This document shows, piece by piece, positions 63,544-63,812 of a stretch of 64,000 bases of DNA. Source of the DNA: Escherichia coli (GTDB lineage: Bacteria; Pseudomonadota; Gammaproteobacteria; Enterobacterales; Enterobacteriaceae); assembly GCF_051903065.1 (NCBI RefSeq), contig NZ_CP178438.1. One strand, written 5' to 3'. Numbering within the stretch: the stretch's first letter is position 1; every line of letters begins with the position of its first letter. Under the pieces are notes generated by a model. That model worked only from the letters and a program-made list of their open reading frames with translations, had not been told where the DNA came from and did not search any database. The translations under genes and the position numbers were made by a program.

Positions 63544-63812
63544 TGAAAGAGCTTGAGTTAAAGAAACCGATTACTGCTCATGGCGAGACACTCTCCGTAC
63601 TGGAGTTTGATGAGCCCACCGGGAAGGATGTCCGCGAGCTGGGGTATCCCTACCAGATGAATCAGGATGAGTCAGTCAAACTTCTGGCGCATGTGGTGTC
63701 GAAATACATTGTGCGGCTGGCGAAAGTGCCGCAAAGCTCTGTCGACCAGATGTCTCCGGCAGACCTGAATGCAGCGGCGTGGCTTGTGGCTGGTTTTTTC
63801 CTCCAGGCCTGA
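63543..63812 (+). CDS. Tail assembly chaperone (short form)
   Basis: 89-aa ORF after tube gene; contains slippery run near its end. Confidence 0.6.
   Translation: MKELELKKPITAHGETLSVLEFDEPTGKDVRELGYPYQMNQDESVKLLAHVVSKYIVRLAKVPQSSVDQMSPADLNAAAWLVAGFFLQA

Follow-up and report, generated by a model that had tools for sequence, protein, structure and literature searches.

A Predicted −1 Ribosomal Frameshift of the P2 E/E+E′ Type in the Tail Assembly Chaperone Gene of an SfV-like Escherichia coli Prophage

Does the tail assembly chaperone gene close to the end of the analyzed DNA encode one protein or two? The window (the whole stretch of 64,000 nt that was analyzed, from Escherichia coli contig NZ_CP178438.1) ends within a prophage tail module, and a preliminary description of it, made from the letters alone, had pointed out a slippery heptamer in the overlap of the chaperone ORF with an ORF in the −1 frame, proposing a programmed −1 frameshift in the canonical arrangement of tail assembly chaperones. 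We analyzed the gene order, the phase and conservation of the heptamer, the coding capacity of the −1 frame, and the possible stimulatory elements at this locus. Judged from the sequence and its relatives, the gene very probably undergoes programmed ribosomal −1 frameshifting of the P2 E/E+E′ type, which would yield a predicted fusion of 139 aa in addition to the short chaperone.

Gene Order of the Tail Module

The last 2.3 kb of the window contained the start of a contractile-tail module, in which a sheath gene (61691–63187) was followed by the tail tube gene, an ORF of 89 aa, and the tape-measure gene (Table 1). The tube gene was located directly upstream of the chaperone gene, and its stop codon overlapped the chaperone ATG. 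The 89-aa product matched PF10109 (Phage_TAC_7, “Phage tail assembly chaperone E/41/14”) with 61.1 bits at a cut-off of 25 (E 1e-16); its residues 4–86 corresponded to profile positions 2–78/79. The downstream gene was assigned to the tape-measure protein from orf14 of SfV (“tail length tape measure protein”), which has the same offset, and from the presence of PF10145 in relatives.

Positions 63187–64000 (814 bases) were 98.6% identical to Shigella phage SfV and 97.8–98.3% identical to SfI, SfII, and two E. coli phages. The stretch from the chaperone to the tape-measure gene (63543–64000) was matched in 917 of 5,426 complete E. coli genomes. By sequence identity, the host element is an SfV-like E. 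coli/Shigella prophage.

Table 1. Features of the chaperone locus and their positions in the window
Feature	Position	Strand	Evidence
Tail tube gene, 118 aa	63187..63543	+	PF10618 Tail_tube, E 3.3e-33; phrog_185; “tail tube” in SfV annotation
Tail assembly chaperone, 0-frame product, gpE-like, 89 aa, 9.9 kDa	63543..63812	+	PF10109; phrog_166; PGAP “phage tail assembly protein”
Slippery heptamer T_TTT_TTC, in phase; P-site UUU, A-site UUC, both tRNA-Phe	63794..63800	+	Sequence
0-frame UGA, stop of the short product, 10 nt past the heptamer	63810..63812	+	Sequence
−1 extension, E′-like, 53 codons plus stop	63800..63961	+	Open frame; phrog_32181, E 4e-40
Predicted fusion, 139 aa, 15.8 kDa	join(63543..63800, 63800..63961)	+	Frame reading
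Predicted fusion junction peptide	...LVAGFFPPGLTAEYLTDR	+	Translation across the slip site
Perfect 8-bp hairpin/palindrome TGCGCCAG-CTA-CTGGCGCA	63845..63863	+	Inverted repeat; dG −12.9 kcal/mol; inside the −1 extension
AGGAG Shine–Dalgarno sequence of the tape-measure gene, within the −1 extension	63939..63943	+	GAG codon invariant in 50/51
Tape-measure gene start, first 47 nt (the window end cuts the gene)	63954..64000	+	ATG 63954

Slippery Heptamer and Proposed Mechanism

At its 3′ end, the chaperone frame reads GCT GGT TTT TTC CTC CAG GCC TGA. The base T63794 is the third base of the Gly codon GGT, TTT occupies positions 63795–63797, and TTC positions 63798–63800, which is the correct X_XXY_YYZ phase. 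The phase and the coordinates of the heptamer given by the preliminary description were thus borne out by the sequence. The −1 frame ORF that it had named (63779–63961) was present in the ORF list as a frame of 60 aa with a GTG start, and this ORF overlaps the chaperone ORF at 63779–63812, as had been claimed.

By itself the heptamer is uninformative, because T6 runs and in-phase heptamers are common in the window: its plus strand contained 35 TTTTTT positions, and 51 in-phase heptamers of the A/T type were found in ORFs of at least 100 aa. What exceeds chance, at the level of sequence comparison, is that the heptamer is conserved and also stands at this place in the gene order. One further candidate, an antisense ORF (54260–54700, minus strand) with an in-phase TTTTTTG and a −1 extension of 175 codons, was rejected as spurious; it lies opposite the plus-strand ORFs 53991–54494 and 54491–56224.

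In the proposed mechanism, the majority of ribosomes would read the chaperone frame up to its UGA and release the 89-aa chaperone. A minority would slip with tRNA-Phe in both the P site (UUU, 63795–63797) and the A site (UUC, 63798–63800), and both tRNAs would re-pair one base 5′, on UUU UUU (63794–63799). After the slip, decoding would resume at CCU (63800) and proceed through 53 codons, giving the 139-aa fusion, which would end inside the tape-measure start. The ratio of the two products would be fixed by the slip rate. We infer the ribosomal nature of the slippage and the roles of the two domains, the roles being taken by analogy from lambda G/GT: coating of the tape-measure protein would fall to the N-domain that both products share, and the rarer −1 domain would recruit the tube subunits.

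Conservation of the Slip Site

The first comparison set consisted of the window and 12 fetched sequences, phage Mu among them. Further relatives were sought with two chaperone sub-alignments, the 12-sequence alignment being too diverse to serve as a single query. An in-phase TTTTTT[C/T/G] was located at the same alignment column in all 12 non-Mu sequences (the window, 10 phage records, and one plasmid record). On the enteric side, the relatives with this arrangement were SfV, SfIV, phiP27, ST64B, Yersinia YeP1, Edwardsiella EPP-1, and Pantoea AH07; the others were Burkholderia BgVeeders33, Pseudomonas DVM-2008 and PG1, Bordetella PBb001, and an alphaproteobacterial plasmid record from Haematospirillum. 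Their chaperones had 31–80% identity to that of the window, with SfV being near-identical, and the open −1 frame came within 10 nt of the tape-measure start in every non-Mu relative.

The related loci on viral contigs gave the same picture: TTTTTTC or TTTTTTT occupied the slip column in 160 of 161, and a −1 peptide of 52–58 residues, counted from the slip site, was encoded in 66 of the 67 unique protein pairs. All nine enterobacterial contigs (9/9) carried the same in-phase T run at the same column. The preceding codon was always NNT (GGT, AGT, CGT, AAT, GAT, or CCT), though the residue that it encodes is Gly, Ser, Arg, Asn, Asp, or Pro. In the closest clade, GGT was invariant, and the adjacent Val and Ala codons used three and four synonymous forms, respectively. 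The NNT rule and the invariant GGT beside varying GTN and GCN codons therefore indicate nucleotide-level selection for the T run.

Such a run could also act on RNA polymerase, which would add a U on the T6 stretch and thereby produce a fraction of mRNA with the two frames fused, no ribosome shift being involved. For E. coli RNA polymerase to slip efficiently, a run of about 8–9 bases or more is generally required, whereas the run is only T6 here and T7 in the SfIV/ST64B clade. It is always X_XXY_YYZ-phased at the Pfam column of the P2 site, where the shift is described as translational; its A-site base varies among C, T, and G, and the run is not lengthened in most clades. Consistent with an effect on the polymerase are the nature of the conserved element, a homopolymer run, and the NNT requirement, which lengthens this run. 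In addition, E. coli genes contain fewer UUUUUUU and AAAAAAA heptamers than expected in each of the three phases, for which transcriptional slippage or indel mutation was suggested by the authors as possible reasons (PMC4066793). Given the short run and the translational nature ascribed to the homologous P2 event, we rate transcriptional slippage as unlikely, and ribosomal frameshifting remains the preferred reading of the conserved run.

Two variants of the slip site were observed. GGG TTT TTC was present instead of GGT TTT TTC in two of 80 near-identical prophages (L188 and L217, IMG/VR, E. coli, at about 1149–1158). This substitution is synonymous, removes the X base of the heptamer, and weakens P-site re-pairing; the two prophages may be weakened-frameshift variants or decaying elements. 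The sole relative of the 161 without the T run was Paraburkholderia phage IPK (PV588664, UNVERIFIED; about 1440–1700), which has CTTCTTC. Its E′-like peptide was kept in the −1 frame, with two −1 stops between the GFF site and the peptide, which points to errors in the sequence or to a non-canonical shift site that has moved close to the 0-frame stop.

Coding Capacity of the −1 Frame and the Predicted Fusion

The −1 frame was open from 63671 to 63961, and the +1 frame closed 7 nt past the stop. An open stretch of 56 codons has a chance of about 7% in random sequence (estimated as (61/64)^56). A tblastn search with the 55-aa −1 peptide found matches in phage −1 frames down to 36–40% identity. 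Over the 144 nt past the 0-frame stop, the window and EPP-1 differed at 9, 6, and 27 sites in the first, second, and third codon positions of the −1 frame, respectively; pN was 0.14 and pS 0.89 in this frame, and the other two frames contained stops and had a dN/dS of 1 or more. As read from these substitutions, the −1 extension is under purifying selection.

It could be supposed that the heptamer and the open frame are incidental and that the 142 nt from the chaperone stop to the tape-measure ATG are a non-coding spacer, as the abundance of heptamers and T6 runs in the window and the absence of any RefSeq/PGAP annotation for this stretch would allow. Such a spacer would not account for the excess of third-position substitutions and the low pN/pS, both confined to the −1 frame, nor for similarity at the protein level that may reach as far as P2 E′. 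The frame was open in 66 of 67 unique relatives despite protein divergence of up to ~60–70%, and the loci are not recent copies of one sequence, the mean pairwise divergence being 19.5% in the closest clade alone. We therefore regard a non-coding spacer as highly improbable.

The extension could also be translated on its own, as a separate 60-aa gene initiating at the GTG at 63779. This is how it appears in ON470584 (9199–9381), where a 60-aa “hypothetical protein” is annotated, and in gene calls on several contigs, and PHROGs holds it as a family of its own, phrog_32181. However, no Shine–Dalgarno-like sequence was found upstream of the GTG in the window. Among 106 unique relatives, 77 had no start codon (ATG, GTG, or TTG) in the −1 frame up to and including the slip site, and none (0/106) had a Shine–Dalgarno sequence for the −1 ORF. 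In SfIV, no −1 ORF of at least 25 aa was callable, yet the peptide was conserved. These three observations exclude independent initiation as a general mechanism. Moreover, conservation of the −1 peptide starts exactly at the slip site rather than at an upstream start codon, and in the structural model described below the extension packs against the N-domain. A separate gene is accordingly hardly credible, and the −1 peptide is best understood as the C-terminal part of a frameshift product.

The predicted fusion was modeled by AlphaFold2, with an alignment of 29 predicted fusions as input. The model was one compact, confident fold (pLDDT 94.3, pTM 0.84), in which the extension was predicted to pack against the N-domain with high confidence. 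The best BFVD matches of the model were viral tail or tape-measure chaperones. In the PDB, the sequence search returned only chance matches and the fold search nothing (E > 1), so no solved relative was found; NCBIfam had no match for the locus. “Naturally fused” proteins of 137–139 aa (P0001–P0003) were considered as evidence of fusion and rejected, P0002 and P0003 being traced to assembly artefacts. The sources of the fused 139-aa chaperone (L265, Logan ERR10447791; L266, ERZ1744991, coverage 2.4x) carried extra substitutions and indels: one had an altered T run, a change of UGA to CGA, and an inserted T, and the other had an upstream indel.

Taken together, the membership of the chaperone in PF10109, the gene order, the phased heptamer, and the conserved −1 frame are sequence-level hallmarks that support the programmed −1 frameshift proposed in the preliminary description.

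Stimulatory Elements and Frameshift Efficiency

UUY A-site codons and all-pyrimidine heptamers are comparatively prone to shifting in E. coli (PMC4066793). In E. coli reporters, U_UUU_UUC without a stimulator gave 0.12% frameshifting versus a no-motif background of ~0.055% (PMC4066793); the same heptamer gave 0.9% with the IS911 stimulators and 7.6% with the IS3 pseudoknot (PMC4066793, supplement).

Elements of this kind were sought around the heptamer of the window. Only a weak 4-bp hairpin at +6, not conserved, was found in a search for a hairpin or pseudoknot 5–9 nt 3′ of the heptamer, and no SD-like element 6–17 nt 5′ of it was conserved in relatives. RNAalifold gave no consensus structure at the canonical spacing in either the enteric or the Pseudomonas clade, and Rfam had no match at the frameshift site. 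Two longer pairings were rejected as stimulators, one of 7 bp (63807–63813/63918–63924, with the canonical +6 spacing) and one of 10 bp (63825–63834/63891–63900); neither was kept or compensated in relatives. The arrangement that had been called canonical is therefore so in its heptamer and gene order and not in its stimulators, of which neither the 3′ structure nor the upstream SD-like element was conserved. Since no conserved stimulator occurs at the canonical spacing, the shift may be very inefficient or may rely on an element not yet recognised.

The sole notable consensus helix in RNAalifold was a perfect hairpin 44 nt 3′ of the heptamer (Table 1). The encoded D-C-A-S-Y-W-R-I motif was sought in 2.9 million viral contigs, any synonymous codon being permitted. 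At least 120 loci with the alanine codon GCC were found, representing 51 unique sequences with a mean pairwise divergence of 19.5%, and there were no matches with any non-GCC alanine codon in these 2.9 million contigs. The stem codons TGC, GCC, and CGC were each present in 51/51 sequences and TAC in 50/51, the single TAT retaining a G-U pair; the Ser codon of the loop was AGC in 22 and AGT in 28. In a smaller set of 11 sequences, 4/4 stem codons were invariant versus 2/15 codons elsewhere. Degenerate flanking codons varied against the frozen stem (Mann–Whitney p = 0.005), in a post hoc comparison of phylogenetically related sequences; for these two reasons the result is a lead and not a finding. 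The hairpin was degraded in a Hamiltonella relative and absent from the SfIV, Pseudomonas, and Burkholderia clades. The palindrome occurred once in the window, which rules out its reading as a repeated operator.

The distance of 44 nt from the heptamer disfavours a classical stimulator role. It is doubtful, though conceivable, that the hairpin functions as RNA within the frameshift cassette. It may be a non-canonical distal modulator of frameshift efficiency, or it may act as a decay or polarity barrier, so that expression of the low-copy tape measure is uncoupled from that of the sheath, tube, and chaperone, which are abundant. An effect on mRNA stability or polarity and a function as a DNA site are equally conceivable. 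If functional, the hairpin would help to explain a stoichiometric role for a heptamer that gives only ~0.1% alone, and it would be a small, testable addition to the tuning of phage −1 frameshift cassettes.

Annotation of the Locus

No annotation of the frameshift or of the fusion at this locus was present in the database records examined (phage records, RefSeq/PGAP). The −1 extension was repeatedly called as a free-standing 60-aa hypothetical protein, both in ON470584 and on contigs L257–L259 and L264 (937–1119), and phrog_32181 is listed in PHROGs with “unknown function”. These 60-aa calls are a systematic annotation artefact of the frameshift. A full-text literature search found no paper on a frameshift in SfV-type phages; Xu 2004, Christie 2002, and the SfV genome paper were outside its reach. 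The case in the window is an unannotated member of a long-known frameshift class.

The main value of the analysis is thus in annotation. In the Shigella serotype-converting phages SfV, SfI, SfII, and SfIV, an essential-looking predicted fusion of 139 aa is either absent from the annotation or reduced to a 60-aa hypothetical protein, and the same applies to the prophage type found in 917 of the 5,426 complete E. coli genomes.

Comparison with Known Frameshift Cassettes

In phage lambda, gpG and gpGT are reported to be produced by a −1 shift at G_GGA_AAG in a ratio of ~30:1 (Levin 1993; Xu 2004, 2013, 2014; PMC5009743), and, according to PMC5009743, the tape measure is bound by the domain common to both products and the tail-tube subunit by the extension. 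Lambda G/GT resembles the locus of the window in that the chaperone gene lies just 5′ of the tape-measure gene, the −1 shift occurs near its 3′ end, and the minor product is longer. The sequence-level features of the lambda paradigm were found in the window: a chaperone gene between the tube (PF10618) and tape-measure genes, an overlapping second ORF that has no start or RBS of its own and reaches the tape measure, and a conserved, phased slippery site. The two systems differ in the protein family, in the heptamer and its tRNAs, and in the tail, which is non-contractile in lambda.

The dnaX, IS911, and IS3 signals share with the window the X_XXY_YYZ heptamer and tandem slippage (PMC4066793). 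Unlike them, the window has neither a conserved upstream SD-like element nor a hairpin or pseudoknot at 5–9 nt, its only conserved structure being 44 nt away.

The tail neighbourhood of phage Mu (DUF2635/gp38, sheath L, tube M, tape measure, N) is homologous to the module of the window, and the tail module around the chaperone of the window is Mu/SfV-like and not P2-like. For gp41 of Mu, a −2 frameshift is reported (Xu 2004, as cited in PMC2628397 and PMC5009743). This protein is a distant relative in PF10109 (E 2.5e-5); it has 144 aa, belongs to PF23746, has no in-phase heptamer, and has its extension in the +1/−2 frame (L015, 2553–3132). In contrast, the chaperone of the window matched only PF10109 and not PF23746 (Gp41_Mu). 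Since the Mu chaperone differs despite the similar sheath, tube, and DUF2635 protein, the chaperone/frameshift cassette and the remainder of the tail module were not inherited together.

The closest parallel is phage P2, whose record annotates E and E+E′ with a −1 frameshift at T_TTT_TTG; the E/E+E′ shift at TTTTTTG is reported in PMC3091744 as demonstrated (Christie 2002). P2 gpE also belongs to PF10109 (47.8 bits, profile columns 2–78), as does the chaperone of the window, and the slip sites coincide: residues 85–86 (F-F) in the window and 84–85 (F-L) in P2, both ending at profile position 78/79. In both, the slip site follows Gly-Phe in GGT TTT TT-, and the gene order is tube, chaperone, tape measure. 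The extensions have 53 codons in the window and 57 in P2 and share an aromatic-W-x-x-P-x-E-L motif (YWRINPFEL and FHWPPSEL, respectively). The stop of the extension, at 63959–63961 in the window, and the tape-measure ATG overlap by exactly 8 nt in both, at 63954–63961 (ATGGCTGA) in the window and at 851–858 (ATGAGTAA) in the P2 sequence (L267); this shared overlap hints that shifted ribosomes would terminate on the tape-measure start.

The sequences themselves have diverged widely. The A-site codon is UUC (Phe) in the window and UUG (Leu) in P2, and the proteins are ~21% identical, with no significant BLASTP match to P2 E+E′ (E 0.43). Profile comparison of the extension with P2 E′ gave an hhalign probability of 68% (E 4.7e-5, 43 columns). 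PF06528 (Phage_P2_GpE) had no match at E ≤ 10 for the window, SfIV, and Pseudomonas extensions; the Bordetella extension scored 15.7 bits (below the cut-off of 23) and P2 E′ 78.6 bits. In P2 E′ (about 735–776 of the P2 sequence), a 10-bp stem CUGAUGGCGG/CCGCCAUCAG was observed ~50–93 nt past the slip site, where it surrounds the corresponding FHWPP motif. One pair of this stem was broken in 6 of 35 unique P2-like sequences, a near-identical sample with little diversity. The strong stem of P2 is thus not strictly conserved, unlike the frozen hairpin 44 nt downstream in the SfV clade.

A single slip site, GGT TTT TTN at the end of PF10109, is therefore common to P2 and to the SfV-like, Pseudomonas tailocin-like, Burkholderia, and Bordetella elements; in true Mu, a different frame is used.
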